Assembly (NCBI GenBank): GCA_001779115.1
Contig: MFJF01000015.1
Coordinates: 22,491 to 86,490, forward strand
Length of the DNA stretch: 64,000 bases
DNA from: Candidatus Gottesmanbacteria bacterium RIFCSPHIGHO2_01_FULL_40_15
GTDB taxonomy: Bacteria > Patescibacteriota > Microgenomatia > 2-02-FULL-39-11
Reading direction: 5' to 3'
In this document: piece by piece, positions 1-52,398 of the stretch
Layout: each line of letters begins with the position of its first letter
How positions within the stretch are numbered: position 1 is the stretch's first letter
The notes under the pieces: generated by a model
The model's input: only the letters and a program-made list of their open reading frames with translations
Database searches by the model: none
What the model was told of the DNA's origin: nothing
Made by a program: the position numbers and the translations under genes

Positions 1-1389
1 GAAGCAATATATATCCGATGGGCGCAGATAGGTTTGAATGACCCGGCTCACCGTTTTATTTCCCTGACCGACGGCAAACAGCCGCTTTTTACCTGGCTAA
101 TGTATCCGTTTCTTAGTATTTTTACTGATCCGCTTTTTGCCGGCCGGTTTGTTTCGGTTCTTTCCTCGATGCTCGCCGTTTCCGGAATTTACTTCCTGGC
201 CAAAGAATTATTTAACCGCAAAACAGCAGTATTTGCCTGTATTTTATATCTGATTTCACCCTTCGCCCTGCTCTATGACAGGCTGGCCCTAATGGACAGC
301 CTACTCTCGGCGCTTTTGGTTTGGTGCTTATATTTTACGGTTATGCTCACCAGATACAGCCGTCTCTATTTCAGTTTTATGCTGGGAATAACCGCCGGAT
401 TTGGACTCCTTACAAAATCATCAGCCGCTTTCGGTCTTTATCTTTTGCCATTCTCGCTTCTTCTTTTTAATTTTAGCGAAAAAAATAACTTAAATAAATT
501 ATTAAAATGGGCAGTTTTTTCTTTTTTGAGTATAATAATTGCTCAAATTATATATAATTTATTGAGATTATCGCCATATTTTTACATTATAGAACAAAAA
601 AATTATTCTTTCATCATGACGTTTGATGAATTTATAAAATCACCTTTGAGGATTTTTCTGCCTAATCTGAACGGTTTGACCGGATGGCTTTTTTCCTATT
701 TAACAATTCCTGTCGCTGTAATTACCATCATAAATCTGATTATTTCCATAATTAAAGTAAAAAGAATTATATTTTTACTATTTCTCTGGTTTATAATTCC
801 CTTTCTTGCTTTAGCGTTTTTGGGTAAAGTAATTTTCCCTCGTTTTATCCTGTTTATGACGATGCCCTTATTGATAATTGCGGCTGATTTTCTAAGCCGG
901 TTTTATTCATTCGCCAGGATTCGCATGAAATACGCTTATATAGTTATTTTGCTGATTTTAGCCCAATCGTTTTATATTTCACTTGTATTGATAGTAAAAC
1001 CGGTAAATGCCGATATACCGCTTAATGACAGAAACCAGTTCTTTGATGATTGGCCGTCGGGATTCGGAGTCAGGCAGGTAGTCGATTATATCGAAAACGA
1101 ATCCCGAAAAGGAAAAGTGGTATTGGGAACGGAGGGTACGTTCGGCCTGAATCCGGCCGCGTATGAAATATATCTCAAGTCCAATGACAACATCATTATA
1201 AAAGGATATTGGCCTGTAAAATCAGTGCCCGCTGAACTGAAAAACTATGCCCGCCTTTATCCTACATATCTTGTCTTTAAAGATACACAGGAATTTCCCG
1301 GTAACTGGCCTTTAAAACTGGTTGCCCGATACCGGCGCGGTTTAAAAAACACTTATTTGTATTTCTATCAGGTGATTCCTGAAGATTAA
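1..1389 (+). CDS. PMT_2/ArnT-like GT-C membrane glycosyltransferase, 5'-truncated (sixth B-family paralog). The frame is open to the window start; the ORF track begins at TTG 34.
   Basis: No stop in frame from nt 1. Polytopic hydrophobic protein whose TM-core and C-terminal region are collinear with the paralogs at 25085, 27551, 29205, 32797 and 34404. The N-terminal DE-loop is presumably upstream. Confidence 0.55.
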   Translation, partial: EAIYIRWAQIGLNDPAHRFISLTDGKQPLFTWLMYPFLSIFTDPLFAGRFVSVLSSMLAVSGIYFLAKELFNRKTAVFACILYLISPFALLYDRLALMDSLLSALLVWCLYFTVMLTRYSRLYFSFMLGITAGFGLLTKSSAAFGLYLLPFSLLLFNFSEKNNLNKLLKWAVFSFLSIIIAQIIYNLLRLSPYFYIIEQKNYSFIMTFDEFIKSPLRIFLPNLNGLTGWLFSYLTIPVAVITIINLIISIIKVKRIIFLLFLWFIIPFLALAFLGKVIFPRFILFMTMPLLIIAADFLSRFYSFARIRMKYAYIVILLILAQSFYISLVLIVKPVNADIPLNDRNQFFDDWPSGFGVRQVVDYIENESRKGKVVLGTEGTFGLNPAAYEIYLKSNDNIIIKGYWPVKSVPAELKNYARLYPTYLVFKDTQEFPGNWPLKLVARYRRGLKNTYLYFYQVIPED

Positions 1390-3038
1390 TGCGAAAATTA
1401 CCAGGTTTATATTTTTTTTTAACTCTGATTTTCCTGCTGATTATTTCTTTAGTTTATTCATGGCCTTTTTTCAAGCCGGGTCTGATTGTAACGGACGATG
1501 GTATTTGGTCGGTTGTGCGTCTTGCGGAAATGGTCAGAGAGTTAAAAGATTTCCAGATTCCTCCGCGCTGGGCCGGATACCTTAACCATGGATACGGTTA
1601 TCCTCTTTTTTCCTTTGCTTATCCCTTGCCTTATTATTTGGGTGCGTTTTTGAAATTTACGGGATTGTCCTATGTTTCTGCCGTAAAATTTTTATTTATC
1701 GGCAGCACGTTCCTTTCAGTGTTTTTCATGTATCTGTTGGGATCGACCTTAACCGGTCCCGGCGGAGGATTAACGGCAGCTCTTTTTTATTTGATAGCTC
1801 CTTACCGGTTAACCGATCTTTATGTCCGGGGTTCTTTAGGAGAATCAATCAGTTTCCTTTTTTTTCCGCTGATTTTTTACCTGACGGTTAAAATATTTAA
1901 AGAAAGTCCCGGTTTTAAGCCTATTTTTCTCAGTCTGTCCCTTTCCGCTTTGATGCTTTGCCATAATGTCATGGCTGTCCTTTTCATCCCTGTTTGGCTT
2001 TTTTTTGTATTTTTTCTTAATTTTTCCCGCTTCGGAAGGAAAGAAAATGATAAAAAGACATCACCGGTCATTAAATTTCTACCGGTGCAGTTTTTAAAGA
2101 TTTTATTTCTGTCACTCTCTTTGGCGGCATTTTTTATTCTTCCGGCTCTGATGGAAAAAAAATTCCTTGTACTGGATAAAATTCAGCTGGCCGCCAAAAG
2201 CCTCAATTTCATTTCACTCATCAATTTAGTCACCCGGCCGCAAAATACGGTCTATCCCTTTTTCAATTTGGGAATTCCGCAACTGACGGTTGCCGGTCTT
2301 TCTGTATTAGCGCTTTTCAGGATGAAAAAGGATCTTGATCACCGGAGCTTTATGATCTCTGTCCTGATAATTTTAGCCGCCCTTATTTTTCTCACCAATA
2401 ATATAAGTTCATTTTTCTGGCAGCTTCCGATTCTCAATTCAATTGATTTTCCCTGGCGGGTTATGGGTTTGGTCATTTTCATGTTGGCTTTATTAACCTC
2501 ATTTATCGGTTCAAACAGGAATTTATTGGCATTTGGTCTCCTTCTTGCCGGTATCGGCTTTTTCCGGAATCTTTCCCTTATTAATCCTGCCGGATACACT
2601 AAACAAAATGATGAATATTACCTGACTAACGATGCCACCACAACATCCAAAGACGAATTTATGCCTATTTGGGTGACTGATCCCCCAGGAAAAAGATTTT
2701 CGGAAAAAGTCTCATTACCGGAAAACGCTCTCATTTCCGATCTCGTCTACAATTCCAAAACAGTAAAATTTAACCTGCTGTCCCGACAGCCGGGTCGCCT
2801 GATAATAAATACAATTTACTTTCCCGGGTGGCAGGCCACTTTAAACGGAAAAAATACCGCAATTATATACAATAATCCCCAGGGACTGATCTCCCTGGAT
2901 TATCCTTCCGGGGCTTCACGGATTGAAGCGTTTTTTAAGGAAACCCCGTTAAGAAAGACAGCCGACGTCATAAGTTTGCTGGCCCTTATTTATATAATTT
3001 TCTCAATTATGAAAAGAGTTTTTAAATATGTCAGGTAA
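1389..3038 (+). CDS. YfhO-like GT-C family polytopic membrane protein (A-family paralog A1)
   Basis: N-terminal periplasmic-loop motif TDDGIW...RLAE...PPRWAGYLNHGYGYPLFSFAYPLPYYLG. More than 10 predicted TM segments. C-terminal soluble domain with YFPGWQATLNGK, as seen at the C-termini of YfhO-family proteins. The TAATG junction overlaps the previous gene. Confidence 0.6.
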   Translation: MRKLPGLYFFLTLIFLLIISLVYSWPFFKPGLIVTDDGIWSVVRLAEMVRELKDFQIPPRWAGYLNHGYGYPLFSFAYPLPYYLGAFLKFTGLSYVSAVKFLFIGSTFLSVFFMYLLGSTLTGPGGGLTAALFYLIAPYRLTDLYVRGSLGESISFLFFPLIFYLTVKIFKESPGFKPIFLSLSLSALMLCHNVMAVLFIPVWLFFVFFLNFSRFGRKENDKKTSPVIKFLPVQFLKILFLSLSLAAFFILPALMEKKFLVLDKIQLAAKSLNFISLINLVTRPQNTVYPFFNLGIPQLTVAGLSVLALFRMKKDLDHRSFMISVLIILAALIFLTNNISSFFWQLPILNSIDFPWRVMGLVIFMLALLTSFIGSNRNLLAFGLLLAGIGFFRNLSLINPAGYTKQNDEYYLTNDATTTSKDEFMPIWVTDPPGKRFSEKVSLPENALISDLVYNSKTVKFNLLSRQPGRLIINTIYFPGWQATLNGKNTAIIYNNPQGLISLDYPSGASRIEAFFKETPLRKTADVISLLALIYIIFSIMKRVFKYVR

Positions 3039-4749
3039 ACCGGTATCCATTCTGATGCTGATTACGGTATTGGTACTATCCTATTTTTCCGTCCGTCCGG
3101 TATTTATTAAAGGTTACTTTCCCGTGCATGACGATACTCAGCCGGCCAGGGTTTTAGTCATGTCGGAGCAGTTAAGAAAAGGCATCTTTCCTGTGAGGTT
3201 GGTTGACCGCCTCGGCTATGGATACGGTTATCCCTTATTTAATTTTTACGCACCGCTCCCGTATTATTTGGGCTCTTTATTTCATCTGGCCGGATTCTCT
3301 CTTATTTTTTCCGTAAAACTGATGTTTGCTTTTGGAGTGATATTGGCGGCAGTATTTATGTATCTTTTGGCGGTTGAAATCGCCGGGTCCTTCTTTGCTG
3401 CCGCAGCTGCCGTCTTTTATTTGTACGCTCCATACCATGCCGTCAATGTCTATGTCAGAGGTGCGGTCGGAGAGTACTATGCTTATGCATTCCTGCCGTT
3501 ATTGGGACTTGGAATATTGCGCGTAATAAAATCATCTGCCGGAAAATCCGACCACCGTATCCGTCCGGTGTTGCCACTGATACTTGGACTGGCCGGAATA
3601 CTGTTAAGTCATAATATTTTTGGTCTGGTTACTCTATATCTTTTGATCATTTTGATTCTGTATGGACTGTATCGCCAATTAAGAAAAAAAGGAGGCTGTC
3701 ATCTGATGCAAATTCTCATGAATATGGCTTTAGGAATCGGACTGTCCGCTTTTTTTATCCTGCCTGCTTTTTTGGAAAGCCACTTTACCCGTGTTGCCGG
3801 TCTTTCGGCGGGATCAAACAGTTACGATCTGCATTTTATCTCCTTGTTTCAGTTATGGGATTCTCCCTGGGGTTTCGGCGGTTCTGTTCCGGGCTTAAAC
3901 GACGGCATGTCTTTTAAGATCGGAAAACTGCACCTTTTAATAGCGGTTTTAGGGCTCATCCGTTTTATCTTTCTTGGTCCAAAAAACCCAAAATCAGCTG
4001 CTAAAAAATTTCTGGTTCCGGCTTCACTTTTTCTTTTTCTCCTTTCTGTCTTTTTTATGCTTCCCGTATCCTCTTTTTTGTATCGTTTGTTGCCGTATAT
4101 GAACTTTATCCAGTATCCGTGGCGTTTTTTGAATATCTCTCTTTTTGCCCTCAGCCTGGGTATAGCTCCGCTGTTTTATAATATGAAAAATAAATTTCAG
4201 GCAATATCTGCCTTTTTAATCATCTTCTCTATACAAGGCGTAAACCTGAAATATTTTAATCCGAGAACAGTTCATCCGTTTGATGAAGCCGATTATAAAA
4301 ATCCTGTTAATCTGAAGTTTACAATTTCCAGAATTTCTGACGAGTATTTGCCTCCCGGTATAAACATTCCCCAAACTGCCCGTGATCTTCCCGGTTCATC
4401 TCTGCCGGCAACTCCGGAAATGCCCGTTTATGAATTGACCGGTACGACCGTTTTTAAAAAATTCATGGTTGATAAAAAGGAAACGGGTCCGGTTGTCACC
4501 AAAATGGCATATTTCCCCGGTTGGCAGGCAAAAATTGACTCAAGTGCGGTAAGGGTTGTAAATAGAGAGGGTTTGATTGCTCTTCATGTTCCCGCCGGAA
4601 AGCATATTCTTGAATTGGAATTCAAAAATACGCCGGTAAGATTTACCGGTAACGCGATTTCCATTTCAAGTATTGTTCTGTTACTATATTTACTGTTGGT
4701 GCTGCCGATTAAATATATTTTATGCAAAGAGCCAGATCCGTCGAGGTAG
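3028..4749 (+). CDS. YfhO-like GT-C family polytopic membrane protein (A-family paralog A2)
   Basis: HDDTQP...RLGYGYGYPLFNFYAPLPYYLG motif, many TM segments, C-terminal YFPGWQAKIDSS domain. Paralogous to 1389..3038 and 39192..40847. Confidence 0.6.
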   Translation: MSGKPVSILMLITVLVLSYFSVRPVFIKGYFPVHDDTQPARVLVMSEQLRKGIFPVRLVDRLGYGYGYPLFNFYAPLPYYLGSLFHLAGFSLIFSVKLMFAFGVILAAVFMYLLAVEIAGSFFAAAAAVFYLYAPYHAVNVYVRGAVGEYYAYAFLPLLGLGILRVIKSSAGKSDHRIRPVLPLILGLAGILLSHNIFGLVTLYLLIILILYGLYRQLRKKGGCHLMQILMNMALGIGLSAFFILPAFLESHFTRVAGLSAGSNSYDLHFISLFQLWDSPWGFGGSVPGLNDGMSFKIGKLHLLIAVLGLIRFIFLGPKNPKSAAKKFLVPASLFLFLLSVFFMLPVSSFLYRLLPYMNFIQYPWRFLNISLFALSLGIAPLFYNMKNKFQAISAFLIIFSIQGVNLKYFNPRTVHPFDEADYKNPVNLKFTISRISDEYLPPGINIPQTARDLPGSSLPATPEMPVYELTGTTVFKKFMVDKKETGPVVTKMAYFPGWQAKIDSSAVRVVNREGLIALHVPAGKHILELEFKNTPVRFTGNAISISSIVLLLYLLLVLPIKYILCKEPDPSR

Positions 4750-5459
4750 TTATTCCTATCTATAATGAACAGGAGGAGCTTGCTGACAGTATTATCAAGC
4801 TCCGTTCGTTTTTAAAAAAGAATTTGAAAGACTTCAATTGGCATATTACCATTGCCGATAACGCTTCAACTGACGAAAGCCTTAATATTGCCAGAAAACT
4901 AAAATCCCGTTATACCGGTGTCGGTTTTATTCATCTGGATGAAAAAGGCCGGGGCCGGGCTGTTAAAAAAGCCTGGCAAACAAGCAGGGCTGATTTCTTA
5001 TCTTATATGGACGTAGATCTGTCTTCAGACCTCAGGTATTTCCGGACATTAATTACTGCACTGGTTGACGGATATGATATATCGATAGGCAACCGGCTTA
5101 TGAAAGGATCAATCGTTAAAAAACGCCCTTTGAAAAGGGAAGTTCTTTCAAGGGGATATAATATTCTGATAAAATTACTGTTTTTGGTTCATTTCAGTGA
5201 TGCACAATGCGGTTTTAAAGCTGTCAACCGGAAAGTAGCCGACCGCTTATTGCCGAATATTAAGGATAATGCCTGGTTTTTTGACAGTGAGCTCCTGATT
5301 ACCGGTGAAAAGGTCGGCTATAAAATATTCCAGGTACCGGTTTCCTGGACCGATAATCCCGGATCAACCGTCCGGGTTTTAAAAACAGTTTCGGGTGATT
5401 TGGCCGGTCTTTTACGGTTATTCCTGGATCGGCCTTGGCGCAAAATAAATAAAGTTTAA
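4722..5459 (+). CDS. GT2 polyprenyl-phosphate sugar synthase (Dpm1/GtrB/ArnC-like)
   Basis: VVIPIYNEQEEL...ADNASTDES...YMDVDLSSDL (GT-A DxD region). Size about 245 aa. Overlaps the end of A2. Confidence 0.7.
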   Translation: MQRARSVEVVIPIYNEQEELADSIIKLRSFLKKNLKDFNWHITIADNASTDESLNIARKLKSRYTGVGFIHLDEKGRGRAVKKAWQTSRADFLSYMDVDLSSDLRYFRTLITALVDGYDISIGNRLMKGSIVKKRPLKREVLSRGYNILIKLLFLVHFSDAQCGFKAVNRKVADRLLPNIKDNAWFFDSELLITGEKVGYKIFQVPVSWTDNPGSTVRVLKTVSGDLAGLLRLFLDRPWRKINKV

Positions 5460-5461
5460 AC

Positions 5462-6481
5462 ATGAAAAATATTTTCATTACGGGAGGAGCCGGTTTCATC
5501 GGGTCAAACCTGGCTGCCCATTTTATTAAAAAAGGAAAAAAAGTAACTGTTTTTGATAACCTTTCAAGGCAGGGAGGAAAAGCCAATTTGGACTGGCTGT
5601 CTTCTTTGGGTCCTTTCAAATTCACAAGAGGAGATATCAGGAATAAATCTGAACTTGAAAAGGCGGTTAGGGGGGCTGATGCAATACTCCATCTGGCTGG
5701 TCAGGTTGCCGTAACCACATCAGTTGACGATCCTGCCACAGACTTTGACATTAATGCTTTGGGTACCTTTAATCTCCTTGAAGCTGTCAGAACTTCCGGA
5801 AAAAAAATTCCAGTCATATTTTCATCAACTAATAAAGTTTACGGCGGAATGGAGAATATCAAAGTCATAGAAAAAAATGGCCAGTATATATATAAAGACT
5901 ATAAGTTCGGAATCGCCGAAACTAAAAACCTTGATTTCCATTCACCCTACGGCTGTTCTAAGGGGGCGGCCGATCAGTATATGCGGGATTATTACCGCAT
6001 CTATGATATTCCGACAGTTGTTTTCCGTCAATCCTGCATTTACGGTCCGCGTCAATTCGGTATTGAAGACCAGGGTTGGGTAGCCTGGTTTATTATCGCT
6101 GCTTTTTCCGGAAAAAAAATAACTGTTTACGGCGATGGTAAACAGGTCAGGGATGTGCTTTTTATTGATGATCTGGTTGGGCTTTTTGATATTACACTCG
6201 CAAACATAAATAAATCCGCCGGTAAAATATATAACGTCGGAGGCGGATTTACTAATATACTTTCAGTTTGGACAAAGTTCGGACCTATTTTGGAGGATCT
6301 TTTCGGGCATAAAATAAGAGTGAGTTTCAGCCGGTGGCGGCCCGGTGATCAGAAAGTTTATATTAGTGATATTAGACAGGTTAAAAAAGAGCTCGGTTGG
6401 CAACCCAAAGTCGGAGTTAAAGAGGGTATATCAAAATTATTTAAGTGGGTGGGCAGTAATCAGAATCTGTTCAAATCTTGA
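5462..6481 (+). CDS. CDP-paratose/tyvelose 2-epimerase-like SDR (NAD-dependent sugar-nucleotide epimerase)
   Basis: TGGAGFIGSNL Rossmann motif. VFDNLSRQGGKANLDWL, STNKVYGG and HSPYGCSKGAADQYMRDY (YxxxK) closely resemble the RfbE/Tyv family. Confidence 0.7.
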   Translation: MKNIFITGGAGFIGSNLAAHFIKKGKKVTVFDNLSRQGGKANLDWLSSLGPFKFTRGDIRNKSELEKAVRGADAILHLAGQVAVTTSVDDPATDFDINALGTFNLLEAVRTSGKKIPVIFSSTNKVYGGMENIKVIEKNGQYIYKDYKFGIAETKNLDFHSPYGCSKGAADQYMRDYYRIYDIPTVVFRQSCIYGPRQFGIEDQGWVAWFIIAAFSGKKITVYGDGKQVRDVLFIDDLVGLFDITLANINKSAGKIYNVGGGFTNILSVWTKFGPILEDLFGHKIRVSFSRWRPGDQKVYISDIRQVKKELGWQPKVGVKEGISKLFKWVGSNQNLFKS

Positions 6482-6485
6482 AGAT

Positions 6486-7610
6486 ATGCCAAAATACAAC
6501 AACATTTTAGTCACCGGCGGAGCCGGTTTTATCGGTTCGCATTTGGTCGACGCTTTAATTACTAAAGGTTTTAAAGTCCGGGTTCTTGATAATCTCGATA
6601 AACAGATACACCCCTCTGGCAAGCTTCCTGCATACTTTAACAGGAAAGCTCAATTCATTAAAGGCGATGTAGTTAAAACTGAAGATTGGCGTAAAGCGTT
6701 AAACAAAATTGATTGTGTTTTTCATTTTGCTTCAGCTGTCGGCGTCGGCCAGAGTATGTATGAGATTGAAAAATACGTGCGCGTCAACTGTCTTGGGACG
6801 GCGCTTTTTCTTGACATGTTGGCCAATAAGAGTCACGGCGTTAGAAAAATTATTGTGGCCGCTTCCATGAGTTCTTACGGTGAAGGAAGCTACATTTGCA
6901 GTAAATGCGGTATTGTCAGACCGGATCTTCGTCCCCAATCTCAGCTGAAAAAAAGAGACTGGCAGGTATATTGTCCTGAATGTGGCATTTGGGTAACGCC
7001 TGTTCCGACAAAAGAAGAAGCCAAGCAGAATTCCAATTCTATTTATGCGATTACCAAAAAAAACCAGGAAGACATGATTCTGACAACCGGTAAAACTTAC
7101 GGTATTCCCTCTGTTGCCCTCCGTTTTTTTAATGTTTACGGTCCCAGACAATCACTTTCCAATCCCTATAACGGTGTGGCTGCCATATTCCTCAGCCGCA
7201 TCAAAAATAATAAACCGCCTGTAATAAATGAAGACGGTTTTCAGACCAGGGATTTTATCCATATTACTGATGTTGTTTCAGCCTGTATTGCCGCCATGGA
7301 AAAATCCTCAGGGGATTACGAAGTATTTAATGTAGGCAGCGGTAAACCTGTTACTATATTGGAAGTAGCCGGGGTTATAAGCAGATTATTAAAAAGTTCT
7401 ATTAAACCTGACATAACGGGTAAAGCAAGAAAACTTGATGTCCGTCATTGCTATGCCGATCTGAAAAAAATTAAAAAACTGCTCGGTTGGTCTCCCAAAA
7501 TTAAACTCTTGGAAGGATTTGCCGGACTGATTGAATGGGGTAAATATGAGAAAGCGCGGGATAAGGTGGATTATGCTCTTGGTGAATTGGAAAAAAGAGG
7601 ATTAAGATGA
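6486..7610 (+). CDS. NAD-dependent epimerase/dehydratase (SDR) with a Zn-ribbon insertion
   Basis: ILVTGGAGFIGSHLVD, and a catalytic Ser region (ASMSSYGEG) followed by a CSKCG...CPECG insertion before YAITK. Start taken at ATG 6486; the ORF track's TTG 6345 would overlap the upstream gene by 137 nt. Confidence 0.7.
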   Translation: MPKYNNILVTGGAGFIGSHLVDALITKGFKVRVLDNLDKQIHPSGKLPAYFNRKAQFIKGDVVKTEDWRKALNKIDCVFHFASAVGVGQSMYEIEKYVRVNCLGTALFLDMLANKSHGVRKIIVAASMSSYGEGSYICSKCGIVRPDLRPQSQLKKRDWQVYCPECGIWVTPVPTKEEAKQNSNSIYAITKKNQEDMILTTGKTYGIPSVALRFFNVYGPRQSLSNPYNGVAAIFLSRIKNNKPPVINEDGFQTRDFIHITDVVSACIAAMEKSSGDYEVFNVGSGKPVTILEVAGVISRLLKSSIKPDITGKARKLDVRHCYADLKKIKKLLGWSPKIKLLEGFAGLIEWGKYEKARDKVDYALGELEKRGLR

Positions 7611-8350
7611 CAGTTTCATTCATAATTCCCTTCCATAATGAAGGAAAAAACTGCCAACCGATGGTAGAACGTGTAGCGGCTTTTGCTGAAAAAAATGATA
7701 TTGATTATGAAATAATTCCGGTGGATGACAGAAGTAATGATAAAACACGGCAAATCCTTAAGAATTTATGCGCGAAAAACAGGCGAATAAAACCCGTTAT
7801 ACGAAAAGAGGACAGCGTGGAAAAGGGAAATACTATGGGCAGTGCCCTTATGGAAGGAACGGTAAAATCAATCGGCCGTTTTATAATTTGGACTATGGGC
7901 GATATGGCCGACAATACTGCAACTTATAAAGATATACTGGATAAACTTAACGGCAATTATGATATGGTTTTTGGTTCCCGTTATATGCCCGGCGGTTCAC
8001 GGGGTAATCTTGATCCTTTGAAAGCGACTTTAAGCTCAACAGGCACTTTCCTGGCCCGGATTCTGTTTGGAATTCCCGTTCATGATATAACTAATGCCTT
8101 CCGGGGTTTTAAAAAAGAAGTATTTCAGAAAGTAAGCCTGGAAGAGACCGGATTCGGCATTTCACCTGAATTTGCCATTAAAGCCCATATGGCCGGATTT
8201 AAGCTCGGGGAAGTTCCGACAACATACGCCAACAGGGTTGAAGGAATCTCCAATTTTAAACTATATAAAATGACCAGGGGATACCTTTTATTATACTTCA
8301 AACTCCTTCTAAAATACCGGCTTCACAAAAAAAAGCTGGTCCTTCACTGA
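7607..8350 (+). CDS. GT2 polyprenyl-phosphate sugar synthase (Dpm1/GtrB-like)
   Basis: SFIIPFHNEG...IPVDDRSNDKT and a C-terminal RVEGISNFK motif typical of Dpm1/GtrB enzymes. ATGA overlap with the upstream gene. Confidence 0.7.
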   Translation: MTVSFIIPFHNEGKNCQPMVERVAAFAEKNDIDYEIIPVDDRSNDKTRQILKNLCAKNRRIKPVIRKEDSVEKGNTMGSALMEGTVKSIGRFIIWTMGDMADNTATYKDILDKLNGNYDMVFGSRYMPGGSRGNLDPLKATLSSTGTFLARILFGIPVHDITNAFRGFKKEVFQKVSLEETGFGISPEFAIKAHMAGFKLGEVPTTYANRVEGISNFKLYKMTRGYLLLYFKLLLKYRLHKKKLVLH

Positions 8351-8359
8351 GATATTTGA

Positions 8360-9526
8360 TTATCTCAACCAATTTTCAGTTAACCGTTTAAACCTGTTTT
8401 CGCTTATGGCTTCCCTTATTTCATTCATGAGTGAGCCGAAAAAAAACAGGTTGTGTATAGTAGCCAGCCTGTATGAAAGAAGCTCCCGGCTCCTGAATAA
8501 ATGGTTTAAGTAAGAGCGGGAAAAATTACTGCAGGTATAGCAGGAGCAATTTTTGACAGGGGGCCGCTTGTCACCGGTATAAATACTTTTGATAATGTCA
8601 TATCTGAATTTATTTTTAAGCCCTGCATTTTTGTCAAAAATCCATCCCATCCTTCCCAGTCTGGTCGGTGTTACACAATCCAAGCTGTCAATTCCTTTGC
8701 CGACAGATATGAAAATATCTTCAATTTCCCCGATCCCCAGAAAGTGGATAGGTTTTTCAGTCGGAAGCAAATAAGGCAGCGTCCAGTCCAAAACGGCAAA
8801 AACTTTCTCCCGCGGTTCACGGCTGTTGGCCACGCTGCCGATGGCCAATCCGTCAAAGGACAGGTGGCTCATAAATTCAGCTGATTCTTGCCGCAAATCC
8901 TTAAAAACTGATCCCTGAACTATCCCGTATAGAAATTGTTCAGTTACTCTTTTTTTTATAAGTAAATCAAGGCAAATACGGGCCCATCGGTGAGTCCTTT
9001 CCATGGCGGTAATTGCCTTTTCCCGAATAATTGGATAGAAAGTACATTCATCAAAGGCCATTAAAATATCCGCGCCCAACTCGAGTTGCGCCCGAATTGA
9101 TTCAACCGGACCCAAAAATTGCCTGCTTCCGTCCCATGCTGATTTGAATGTTATACCCGAATCGGATATTTTCACCAGCGTTTTTTCAATCCTGTTTTGC
9201 CGCGGACCGTGTTCCGACAGGGAAAAGGCCTGGAATCCTCCGGAGTCCGTCATGACAGGTCCGCTCCAGTTCATAAATTTATGAAGCCCCCCGGATTTTT
9301 TAACCGTTGCCACACCCGGGCGGAAAAGCATATGGTAAGTATTGACAAAAAAAACATCCAGATTTGCTGCCCGTATTTCCTCAGGGGTTACCGATTTTAC
9401 AACGGCGCCTGTTCCGACCGGAACAAATGCCGGTGTTCTTATAACGCCGTGTGAAGTATGTATTTCTCCCGCTCGGGCCGACGATTTATTATCCCTGAAT
9501 TTGATATTAAACTTTAAATTGGACAT
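8360..9526 (-). CDS. tgt: queuine tRNA-ribosyltransferase
   Basis: TPAFVPVGT, VNTYHMLFRPG, DSGGFQ and LAFDEC motifs. C-terminal zinc site CxCxxC...H (CSCYTCSNF...HL). Confidence 0.9.
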   Translation of the reverse strand: MSNLKFNIKFRDNKSSARAGEIHTSHGVIRTPAFVPVGTGAVVKSVTPEEIRAANLDVFFVNTYHMLFRPGVATVKKSGGLHKFMNWSGPVMTDSGGFQAFSLSEHGPRQNRIEKTLVKISDSGITFKSAWDGSRQFLGPVESIRAQLELGADILMAFDECTFYPIIREKAITAMERTHRWARICLDLLIKKRVTEQFLYGIVQGSVFKDLRQESAEFMSHLSFDGLAIGSVANSREPREKVFAVLDWTLPYLLPTEKPIHFLGIGEIEDIFISVGKGIDSLDCVTPTRLGRMGWIFDKNAGLKNKFRYDIIKSIYTGDKRPPVKNCSCYTCSNFSRSYLNHLFRSRELLSYRLATIHNLFFFGSLMNEIREAISENRFKRLTENWLR

Positions 9527-9586
9527 ACTTCTTATATTCGGTAATTTCTTTTATAATGCCGGTAATTAATCCGGCAAATTCCTTTA

Positions 9587-9988
9587 ATGATAATCAGATC
9601 AATCAACAAAATCAAAGAACAGCCGGCCGGCCATGAAAATAAGAAAAATCCCGGCTCCCTGAAAAAAATTATCTTTGACCGGAAAAATTTGCCGGGTCTT
9701 TATAAACCCCAAATGATTAATTGGGCCCGCATTCCCTCCGGAAGAAAATTTAGGCCGCATTACCATCAGGATATGACAGAAATCTTCATTATCCTAAAAG
9801 GCCGTGCCGGAATAACCGTAGACGGCAAATTTGCCCGCTTAAAAAAAGGTGATGCGGTTTTAATTGAGGAAATGAAAGAGCATGAAATGGAAAACACCGG
9901 AAAGCAGGATGTTGAATATCTCGTTATCGGTTTATCCCGCGGTGAAGGAGGGAAAACCGTCATCTCCGGGCAAAAAAATAATGAATAA
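9587..9988 (+). CDS. cupin-domain protein. Start uncertain; an internal ATG near 9713 is also possible.
   Basis: Two-His cupin motifs (HYHQDMTEIFIILKG...GDAVLIEE..EHEMEN), about 110-130 aa. Confidence 0.5.
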   Translation: MIIRSINKIKEQPAGHENKKNPGSLKKIIFDRKNLPGLYKPQMINWARIPSGRKFRPHYHQDMTEIFIILKGRAGITVDGKFARLKKGDAVLIEEMKEHEMENTGKQDVEYLVIGLSRGEGGKTVISGQKNNE

Positions 9989-11384
9989 AAAAAGCTTGGT
10001 CTTCTTTATCTTTCTGACATTTTCGGCTCTGACAGCTTTTTATTTATTCCGTAAGTCTTTAAACGGGTTCTTTTTCCAGGATGACTGGTTTTCACTTAAA
10101 ATCAGTTCGGTTAAAAACATTAGGGATGCCTTAAATATATTTGTTCCAAGGTCTGACGTGATTTATTACCGTCCTTTGGGAATGCAGTTGCCCTTTTATC
10201 TCTTAAGCTTGGGCGGTAAGATTAACCCCATCCCGTTTAAGGTACTTATAGCCGTGGTGCATTTTGCCAATATTTGTCTTCTAAGTCTTCTGATTCTGAA
10301 GTTAACCGGAAAAAAATTCAGTTCACTTTTGGTTTCATTTTTCTATTCCACTTCCCTGATTCATTTCACTATTTTTTGGTGGAGCGCCACTTTATCATTT
10401 ATTTTAACAACTTTCTTTTTGCTTATAGCCCTCATTTTATATTTAAAATATTTAACGGAAAAAAAATTTTGGTCTTATTTCTCAACCCTGTTATTTTTTA
10501 CCCTGGCTCTCTTAACCAATGAGATGGCGTTGATTTTTCCGGTGCTAACGCTGTTGCTGCTATGGCTGATTAAAAAAGGAAAGTTCTCATATTTGGGGGT
10601 TGTTCCCTTTATAATTTTACCGGTAATACTTTTTTCAGCCCGATTTCTGTATTTTCCGCCGCCGATATCCGGGGATTACCGGCTGGTTATCGACAGGGGA
10701 CTGATTATTAATCTGAGGGATTACTTCCTCTGGAGTTTTAATTGGCCAGAAGAAATGAAAGGACAATTCGTTAAATTTTTTGCAGTCAATCCTCTTTTTA
10801 TCAGCGGTTTTAAACCTTATTTTTTGGCATTTGTTGTAACACTTTTTATTAATTTGTCTTTCCTTTTTTTAATTCCCTTTCTTTATCTTCTGATTTCCGG
10901 GAATTTAATACCCTTCCGGATGATTATATTCGGAGCTGGTTTATTTCTGGCGGGTTTATTGCCGGTTATACTTTTCGGCCGGCACACTTTTTCCTATTAT
11001 CTGACTCTTTCCCTGATCGGACTGCTTCTTATAACCTCCTCTCTGATTGAAGAGTTTTTCGCAAGTTTCGAAGGCAAATACAGACTTTTGGTTTTCTTTT
11101 ATTTGCTGGTAATTCTAACCAATTGGCTCTATTCGTCATTTATGGGCTTCGAGTTCAACATGAAAGTCCATTGGGCTCCCCGCCGATCGGATATTTCGCA
11201 AAAACTTATTTCTCATGCCGGAGGATTAAAACCGGCTGCCGGGCAAACAGTAATTATTTCGGTAAATAATAATCCTGAAGTGAAACTGGCTTTAAACAAT
11301 CAGGACGCGTTCCAAGTTTTGTTCGGCAGAAACGATATCATTACTGTTTATTCAGATAAAATCGAGGCCGATTTCAGATTATGA
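9983..11384 (+). CDS. polytopic integral membrane protein of unknown function, possibly GT-C-like
   Basis: 467 aa and at least 11 hydrophobic segments. ATGAATAAA start overlaps the cupin stop. I recognised no family. The ORF track start of 9882 is rejected because of the overlap. Confidence 0.45.
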
Positions 11385-51471: not shown

Positions 51472-52398
51472 TTGAAAAAAATTTTGGTTACGGGACTGTC
51501 CGGGTTTATCGGAACCCGGTTGTCAGAATTATTTCACCGATATTCATTAATCGGAGTAAGCCGGTCAGTTTCCCGAAATGGAAGGATTCCGGCCAGGAAT
51601 ATGATTAAAGCTGATATTACCGATGAAAAAGAGTTAAGTAAAAAAATAAACAATATTGAGTTTGACGGGATAATTCATTTGGCAGGGATAACTCATATAG
51701 ACAGGTGTGAAGAGGATAAAATTAACGGAAAAAACGGCCTTGCTTGGAAAGTTAATGTCACCGGGACGGAAAACATTATCAGGGCATGCAGCCAAAGCGG
51801 CAAATTCCTTCTATTTCTGTCAACAGAATGTGTCTTTGACGGAAAAAAAGGTTTTTATAAGGAGTCAGACACGCCCTCTCCGGTTAACTGGTACGGCCGG
51901 ACAAAATATGAAGCTGAAAAGAAGATTTTGAGCAGTAAAATTAATGCCTGCATATTAAGATCGGTATTGGTTTACGGTCATTCAAAGGGTTATAAAGTTG
52001 ATTTGGCTAAAAAATTTTTCGAATTGCTAAAATCAGGCAAAAAAATATCAGCAGTCAATGATCAATTTGTGACTTTTACTTTTATTGATGACCTGATTGG
52101 TGCAATTAATCTGGCTTGGGACAAGAAACTTACCGGCATATATCATTTTGCGGCAGAGACCTCTTTATCACCTTTTGAATTTGCCCGGACTATTTCTTCG
52201 GGATTTGGTTTAAATAATAAAATGATAAAACAAACAACTCTTGAGAAATTTTTCGGTAAATCACACCGCTTGCGGTTGGTCAATTCCAGTTTGAATTCGG
52301 ATAAATTCAGGGAATTTTCCCGTACCAGGGCTAAAAATTTGGAAGATGTTGTACCCATACTTGTCAAAAGATGGGGTAAACCGGGAAATATAAAGTAA
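51472..52398 (+). CDS. RmlD-like dTDP-4-dehydrorhamnose reductase family SDR
   Basis: ILVTGLSGFIGTRL, STECVFDGKKGFYKESDTPSPVNWYGRTKYEAE (the RmlD substrate-binding-domain signature). TTG start. Confidence 0.6.
   Translation: MKKILVTGLSGFIGTRLSELFHRYSLIGVSRSVSRNGRIPARNMIKADITDEKELSKKINNIEFDGIIHLAGITHIDRCEEDKINGKNGLAWKVNVTGTENIIRACSQSGKFLLFLSTECVFDGKKGFYKESDTPSPVNWYGRTKYEAEKKILSSKINACILRSVLVYGHSKGYKVDLAKKFFELLKSGKKISAVNDQFVTFTFIDDLIGAINLAWDKKLTGIYHFAAETSLSPFEFARTISSGFGLNNKMIKQTTLEKFFGKSHRLRLVNSSLNSDKFREFSRTRAKNLEDVVPILVKRWGKPGNIK

Follow-up and report, generated by a model that had tools for sequence, protein, structure and literature searches.

What would a zinc-ribbon-like module be doing inside an enzyme of a superfamily that, to our knowledge, is classically regarded as metal-independent? 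The question is raised by two adjacent genes in a 64-kb stretch of DNA (the window, positions 1-64000) from contig MFJF01000015.1 of Candidatus Gottesmanbacteria bacterium RIFCSPHIGHO2_01_FULL_40_15, which belongs to the candidate phyla radiation (CPR). Gene 1 is a homologue of the cytidine diphosphate (CDP)-tyvelose/paratose 2-epimerases (TyvE), and gene 2 encodes an SDR (short-chain dehydrogenase/reductase) of the extended type with a cysteine-rich insertion in its middle. The reading that we consider probable, though well short of certain, is that gene 2 encodes a nicotinamide adenine dinucleotide (NAD)-dependent nucleotide-sugar epimerase, embedded in a CPR cassette, whose insertion would be held together by a structural and dispensable metal staple.

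The core of gene 2 is that of an ordinary extended SDR. Its open reading frame (ORF) opens with a GTG at 6345, and the ATG at 6486 is the start that fits all homologues. The protein carries the Rossmann motif GGAGFIG at residues 11-17, matches PF01370 (E 1.4e-46, 159 bits against a cutoff of 20.9) and PF16363 (E 4.2e-41), and passes no NCBIfam equivalog. Its catalytic residues are S127, Y187 and K191; the Y, K and S/T catalytic positions are invariant over the 175 ingroup sequences aligned for the tree described below. An AlphaFold 2 (AF2) model built from a 97-sequence alignment reaches a mean pLDDT (predicted local distance difference test) of 97.4 and superposes on GalE-type structures, with TM-scores that reach 0.93 when referred to the target. 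The best matches to the SDR core are uridine diphosphate (UDP)-hexose 4-epimerases of the GalE/WbpP type, such as Thermotoga maritima TM0509 (4zrm) and a Pseudomonas protegens enzyme (6wjb), at E 1e-42 and with the same catalytic machinery. A protein 100% identical to gene 2 is recorded for Candidatus Gottesmanbacteria as a hypothetical protein on 25 contigs, and the 120 homologues listed are about 374 aa long throughout.

What sets gene 2 apart from the GalE/WbpP-type enzymes lies mostly between the serine and the tyrosine. These two residues are spaced by 60 positions, against 25 in Escherichia coli GalE (S124/Y149), and all Pfam, NCBIfam and PDB alignments of gene 2 are split into two parts (about 1-134 and 173-351), leaving some 38 unaligned residues where T. 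maritima GalE has a connection of only 3, a net gain of some 35 residues. GalE/WbpP-type enzymes also have neither the metal site nor the C-terminal tail of gene 2. The insertion is placed between the YGEG turn that follows the catalytic Ser and the PxPTxE strand that precedes the catalytic Tyr, and it contains two cysteine knuckles, C138-x2-C141 (CSKCG) and C163-x2-C166 (CPECG). The original prediction had described this, an SDR of the extended type in which a Cys4 insertion resembling a zinc ribbon stands between catalytic Ser and YxxxK motif, and it holds; only the size that it gave, about 50 residues, was slightly high. In the AF2 model, the insertion (pLDDT 97-98) forms strands 135-138 and 142-144 with the first knuckle at the turn, a helix at 151-155, and a second knuckle (C163-P-x-C166) that leads into strand 171-173. 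We found no solved structure with this element: the Foldseek PDB matches of gene 2 cover the SDR core only, with a best TM-score on the query of 0.77-0.78 (for the best match, 4zrm, 0.77 on the query and 0.93 on the target), and the Pfam and NCBIfam models searched hold no annotation for it.

An exhaustive HMMER search over 1.84 billion cluster representatives returned 3003 matches at E <=1e-30, and conservation was read from an alignment of gene 2 with the best 150 of these representatives of 50%-identity clusters (n=151). Most of the best 150 show one continuous match through the insertion. Cys or His occupies all four ligand columns (CCCC or CHCC) in 104 of the 151 sequences, and seven sequences have a short connection or none. 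The remainder indicates that ligands are lost mostly in an all-or-none fashion, with an insertion of similar length but zero or one ligand in 30 sequences and two or three ligands in 10. Cys-bearing members occur in Candidatus Anammoxibacter, Binatia, Planctomycetota, Acidobacteriaceae, Propionivibrio and Oligoflexia; the haloarchaeon Halomarina keeps three of the four Cys, and Ilyomonas (Bacteroidota) is Cys-less. Judged from these sequences, the insertion is not rare but the majority state of a large clade across many phyla. The idea that it is unusual stands as far as solved SDR structures, Pfam and NCBIfam are concerned, from all of which it is absent, and fails for the clade itself. The insertion is thus real and strongly selected, and we give practically no credence to a frameshift, a misassembly or a chance pattern of cysteines. 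Such an artefact, including the sequencing or frame error considered at the outset, is ruled out by the continuous ORF, the identical protein on 25 contigs, the conservation in more than 100 representatives (the 104 of 151 above) and the high pLDDT.

Which metal, if any, would this module bind? The model and the conservation together suggest a genuine conserved ribbon that is probably zinc-binding. C138, C163 and C166 never vary among the 109 Zn-type sequences, in which position 141 is occupied by C (74) or H (34). A His ligand is usual in zinc sites and unusual for rubredoxin iron, so that its presence at the second ligand in one third of the Zn-type members points to a structural zinc; the predicted metal is most likely Zn(II), in a Cys4 or Cys3His site. 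The CxxCG...CPxCG knuckles are also the classical rubredoxin signature, and the insert gives a weak Pfam match to the LapB rubredoxin-type domain (E 0.0018) and has rubredoxin fusions among its non-significant Foldseek matches. We nevertheless consider it very improbable that the site is an Fe(Cys)4 centre like that of rubredoxin, or that it regulates the enzyme as a redox-sensitive zinc switch: besides the histidines in those 34 members, the site is often lost altogether, which speaks against an indispensable part in regulation, and SDR epimerases, which recycle their own NAD, need no external electron transfer.

The sequences that have lost the ligands bear on the role of the metal. An orthologue from Gottesmanbacteria (P0106), 67% identical to gene 2 and found on 12 contigs (L211 6001-7122), sits in the same cassette and has its four Cys replaced by F, G, Y and T while the length of the loop is kept; by its sequence, it is a natural metal-free variant. 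Homologues of Rhizobium etli and Xanthomonas sacchari likewise keep the loop with the Cys gone. In a rough neighbour-joining tree, calculated without the insert columns and carrying no support values, the Cys-less groups are scattered among the Zn-type sequences. Moreover, Arg149, midway along the loop, is R in 106 of the 109 Zn-type and in all 47 Cys-less sequences. Since this residue is kept with or without the cysteines, the conserved function appears to reside in the loop itself, of which Arg149 is probably the functional element. The loss of the ligands as a set with retention of the loop, together with P0106 and the invariant Arg149, leads us to read the metal as structural and dispensable.

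Gene 2 belongs to a large clade of mostly uncharacterised extended SDRs with an excursion of about 35 residues between Ser and Tyr. Two CxxC/CxxH knuckles, present in gene 2 and in roughly two thirds of the clade, would hold this excursion together by binding one predicted structural metal ion, a staple that would stabilise the fold and take no part in catalysis, which would proceed by the usual Ser/Tyr/Lys-NAD hydride shuttle. Overall, the evidence favours a structural over a specificity-determining role for the metal of the insertion, and not the original suggestion that the ribbon could alter oligomerisation or substrate specificity.

The only relatives with a demonstrated activity are WbiB of Burkholderia thailandensis and Tle of Mycobacterium abscessus, both of which have been shown to be deoxythymidine diphosphate (dTDP)-L-rhamnose 4-epimerases (EC 5.1.3.25) (PMC11549994). 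Tle (MAB_4111c) is a proven 4-epimerase in which S121, Y181, N210 and R249 are essential, and its AlphaFold 3 model already revealed an extra element at residues 128-165, described with no mention of cysteine, zinc or metal (PMC11549994). The insertion as such was therefore already known, and gene 2 with its insertion is not a new kind of system; the zinc site was not, and our full-text search of the open-access literature turned up no account of a sugar-nucleotide SDR carrying a zinc ribbon. Tle and WbiB share with gene 2 the extended SDR fold and the Ser/Tyr/Lys triad. Tle also has the Ser-to-Tyr spacing of 60 (S121/Y181/K185) and the extra element at the same site and of the same length, and its four essential residues align with S127, Y187, N216 and R255 of gene 2 at a constant offset of 6. 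These residues are generic to 4-epimerases, so that sharing them is not discriminating. The loop of Tle/WbiB also conserves Arg149 and an aromatic residue at 159.

In contrast to gene 2, the Tle/WbiB orthologues and close relatives are devoid of the four Cys. The published S121A primer gave 0 matches to M. abscessus tle in the genome contigs, and a degenerate back-translation of LVLASSRAVYGE was scanned instead, yielding 120 loci, mostly mycobacterial orthologues, and neither the M. abscessus nor the B. thailandensis sequences; the absence of cysteines is read from about 90 mycobacterial orthologues plus Caballeronia and Microvirga proteins, and not from the two assayed ones. The mycobacterial sequences match the peptides encoded by the mutagenesis primers of the Tle paper, and they have the loop with its ligand set gone (AWQ[S/C]G..FYP..R....L..G.WDPQGP). 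The four Cys are likewise missing from the WbiB-type proteins of Caballeronia (Burkholderiaceae) and Microvirga, whose loop is slightly shorter; NCBI names the Microvirga protein dTDP-L-rhamnose 4-epimerase. The WbiB/Tle group nests inside the Cys-bearing clade of the tree, and from these sequences we conclude that a much larger family with the zinc ribbon appears to include the characterised Tle/WbiB enzymes as a derived branch devoid of the cysteines.

This bears directly on the most obvious alternative, namely that gene 2 is a plain dTDP-L-rhamnose 4-epimerase, a WbiB/Tle orthologue (KEGG K17947) making dTDP-6-deoxy-L-talose. The Joint Genome Institute (JGI) labels many close homologues in this way, and the shared spacing, the aligned essential residues and the position of the WbiB/Tle-type proteins within the same larger clade all speak for it. 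We nevertheless find it unlikely. The WbiB/Tle proteins form a distinct subclade of about 350 aa, marked by GTGQSLTE and LQNVYGPGQS, with no Cys4 and no C-terminal tail, the ELxxRGL motif of which is present in gene 2 and in most of its clade. Their context is the rhamnose of glycopeptidolipids or O-antigens, that of gene 2 a TyvE-like gene and family-2 glycosyltransferases (GT2). The conserved partner of gene 2 is TyvE-like and not an rml gene; among the window ORFs of at least 130 aa there is no RmlA, RmlB or RmlC, and the sole RmlD-like gene, at 51472, lies 44 kb away with a score under the cutoff. Finally, the identity of gene 2 to a WbiB-type protein amounts to only 32%. In view of this and of the nesting of WbiB/Tle within the Cys-bearing clade, gene 2 should not inherit the rhamnose/talose label. 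The label 'dTDP-L-rhamnose 4-epimerase' found in databases has probably been over-propagated from this derived Cys-less subclade. By analogy with the characterised enzymes, the reaction of gene 2 is most likely a C4 epimerisation of a nucleoside diphosphate (NDP)-hexose, an extrapolation in so far as its identity to WbiB-type proteins is about the same as that to T. maritima UDP-glucose 4-epimerase.

Gene 1, for its part, was assigned by the original prediction to the tyvelose/paratose 2-epimerase family, and the structures bear this out, with end-to-end matches to CDP-tyvelose 2-epimerases (9rl0, E 5.8e-107; 1orr, E 5e-101) and 49% identity to the crystallised enzyme of Thermodesulfatator atlanticus (TaTyvE). 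It has the catalytic T123, Y163 and K167 and the TNK motif (T123-N124-K125), and the VAM motif of TaTyvE is VAV in gene 1; both motifs have been discussed for TaTyvE (PMC13098431). Gene 1 also has the TyvE-type beta-hairpin, which in TaTyvE spans Gly132-Asn150 (PMC13098431) and occupies the same topological position as the insertion of gene 2. Among the PDB matches listed that span both halves of gene 2, 9rl0 is the only one that aligns unbroken across the insertion. The hairpin of TyvE, however, has about 15-19 residues and no Cys ligands, and the chemistry of TyvE is at C2 rather than C4.

The genomic company of gene 1 also differs from that of genuine TyvE genes. Those of TaTyvE and of its Persephonella homologue (L209, L210) sit in nucleotidyltransferase-SDR-SDR-DegT(E1-like)-TyvE clusters, flanked by genes of the rfbF, rfbG, rfbH and rfbS types, and no such CDP-3,6-dideoxyhexose genes were found around gene 1 or in the orthologous CPR cassettes; a cluster of this type is missing from the window. 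The substrate of gene 1 need therefore not be CDP-paratose and should not be assumed to be. The canonical clusters of TaTyvE and the Persephonella homologue rule out TaTyvE as a natural partner of an SDR of the gene 2 family. As a side observation, the product of the E1-like gene next to TaTyvE in T. atlanticus shows an N-terminal PemK_toxin Pfam match.

Genes 1 and 2 are enclosed by two GT2 genes, GT2a and GT2b, in a tightly packed cassette (Table 1). Only 2 nt separate the end of GT2a from the start of gene 1, and gene 2 and GT2b share an ATGA that holds the stop codon of the former and the start codon of the latter. The top NCBIfam matches of both GT2s, all below threshold, are AglJ, dolichyl-phosphate hexose transferase, ArnC and PpgS, four families of polyprenyl- or dolichyl-phosphate sugar synthases. 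Along the cassette, the genes follow one another as PMT_2, two PTPS_related, GT2, TyvE-like, Zn-SDR, GT2, cupin, GT-C-like and flippase, the types of the first three membrane proteins being taken from orthologous loci, and it is kept in other Patescibacteria contigs at 65-72% identity.

Table 1. Genes and protein segments of the cassette, in window coordinates.
Feature	Coordinates	Strand	Remark
Three polytopic membrane proteins, likely GT-C-type glycosyltransferases	34..4749	+	upstream in conserved cassette
GT2a, 245-aa family-2 glycosyltransferase, Dpm1/AglJ/ArnC-like polyprenyl-phosphate sugar synthase type	4722..5459	+	
Gene 1, 339-aa CDP-tyvelose/paratose 2-epimerase (TyvE) homologue	5462..6481	+	PDB matches
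Gene 2, 374-aa extended SDR, NAD-dependent nucleotide-sugar epimerase type	6486..7610	+	
Gene 2 insertion, residues ~135-167 SYICSKCGIVRPDLRPQSQLKKRDWQVYCPECGIW, predicted zinc-ribbon/rubredoxin-like	6888..6986	+	
Gene 2 C-terminal tail, ~20 residues DKVDYALGELEKRGLR	7542..7607	+	predicted helix 361-370
GT2b, 247-aa family-2 glycosyltransferase, Dpm1/AglJ/ArnC-like polyprenyl-phosphate sugar synthase type	7607..8350	+	

Similar partners are found elsewhere. Three unrelated representatives (P0133, P0141 and P0214) are natural fusions of a Zn-SDR and a GT2, which occur in both orders (SDR-GT2 and GT2-SDR), and all three keep the Cys/His ligand set; in Halomarina, a GT2 gene lies directly upstream of the SDR homologue. 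A TyvE-like partner adjoins Cys-less homologues on the R. etli plasmid pRetIE4803d, in X. sacchari and on two metagenome contigs. In R. etli (L001 10098-12140) and X. sacchari (L002 10322-12220), this partner is a protein of 630-680 aa with a TyvE-like C-terminal half, 46-47% identical to gene 1, and 280-330 N-terminal residues that gave no Pfam, NCBIfam or PDB sequence match.

These linkages could suggest that the Cys4 module is rather a docking or assembly element, for oligomerisation or for contact with a GT2, with the TyvE-like enzyme or with the membrane machinery, the metal serving complex formation. The tight coupling of gene 2 with GT2b and the repeated SDR-GT2 fusions with an intact Cys/His set would fit, as would the model, in which the insert juts out of the Rossmann domain as an apparently autonomous mini-domain, an excised segment of 53 residues being predicted to fold alone at a pLDDT of 81.7. 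However, P0106 has none of the four Cys in an otherwise unchanged cassette, and the TyvE hairpin at the same site is not named among the main dimer-dimer contact regions (PMC13098431), so that we regard docking as a doubtful explanation.

With a structural staple as the preferred reading of the metal, the cassette may be understood as follows. Gene 2 and the TyvE-like 2-epimerase would carry out one or two epimerisations of an NDP-sugar, the translationally coupled, Dpm1-like GT2b would load that sugar onto polyprenyl phosphate, and the neighbouring GT-C membrane glycosyltransferases would use the lipid-linked sugar outside the membrane. Such a short epimerase-GT2-GT-C pathway, deduced from gene linkage only, is the most economical reading of the locus. 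A more ambitious combination of these ideas, which we offer as speculation and think improbable, would make the Cys4 clade a functionally distinct family of NDP-hexose epimerases, separate from the rhamnose/talose enzymes. Together with the TyvE-like enzyme, they would produce a rare hexose (e.g., a talo-hexose, inverted at C2 and C4) that the Dpm1-like GT2 turns into a new polyprenyl-phosphate donor for CPR surface GT-C glycosylation, with the ribbon maybe acting as a dock for the GT2. If that were true, no conserved structural metal site would have been described in the SDR nucleotide-sugar class before this zinc ribbon.

Several observations weigh against the epimerase with a metal staple, and they concern both the metal and the function. 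In Pfam, the excised insert matches zinc-ribbon and zinc-finger families almost exclusively, but every match is below significance; the best, to Zn_Ribbon_TF, has E 1.9e-5 and 24.5 bits, where the cutoff is 29. The Foldseek search of the excised insert against the PDB gave nothing significant either (best E 0.4). Its non-significant list is dominated by Cys4 modules (the zinc domain of leucyl-tRNA synthetase, sirtuins, rubredoxin fusions, LapB and PLpro) and also includes a chain of a transcription pre-initiation complex. The modules at the top of that list, such as that of sirtuins, the knuckles of class I aminoacyl-tRNA synthetases and the zinc lobe of medium-chain dehydrogenase/reductase alcohol dehydrogenases, resemble gene 2 in placing a metal module in a nucleotide-binding fold, and belong to unrelated superfamilies. 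The tree from which the repeated loss of the ligands is read is a rough one. The 32% identity of gene 2 to a WbiB-type protein, measured on that of Caballeronia (P0338), is not higher than the one that it shows to T. maritima GalE. No sugar nucleotidyltransferase is encoded among the window ORFs of at least 130 aa, so that nothing there points to the nucleotide. Lastly, we saw no TyvE adjacency for Zn-type members outside the CPR, on contigs that were short: of the 80 loci that a metagenome scan with the generic pattern [VI]TGGAGFIG gave, many of them on short contigs, about 20 were family members, and the only two with a TyvE-like neighbour (L136 and L139) were Cys-less.

The conserved Cys4/Cys3His module is an unannotated structural feature of a large family, with thousands of putative sugar-nucleotide epimerases. 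In practical terms, recombinant work on these SDRs may need zinc supplementation, and chelators are best avoided, while the many natural Cys-less variants form a ready series in which the replacement of a structural metal site can be studied. The linkage to Dpm1-like GT2s and GT-C transferases also provides a testable entry into the surface glycosylation of CPR bacteria, about which little is known.

The cassette is part of a glycosylation island, for nearly the entire 64 kb is given to glycosylation genes. We counted at least 12 GT2, four GT4, seven extended SDRs, a flippase, a DegT aminotransferase and at least eight large GT-C-like membrane proteins (PMT_2, YfhO, PTPS_related or with no assignment), besides an asparagine-synthase-like enzyme and methyltransferases. 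A scan for promoters and terminators gave no informative operon boundaries; terminator-like hairpins number 26 in positions 1-10000, about twice the 12.1 +/- 3.2 of shuffled sequences, and the majority of them lie within coding regions. Two ORFs run antisense to the genes discussed here, one of 108 aa over gene 1 (5299-5625, minus strand) and one of 139 aa over gene 2 (6732-7151, minus strand), and both are most likely spurious. Amid the otherwise co-directional cassette, a tRNA-guanine transglycosylase gene is encoded on the opposite strand (8360-9526, minus), an arrangement that is likewise found in two related loci (L128 and L211), whereas the gene is missing from that position in two others (L124 and L126).

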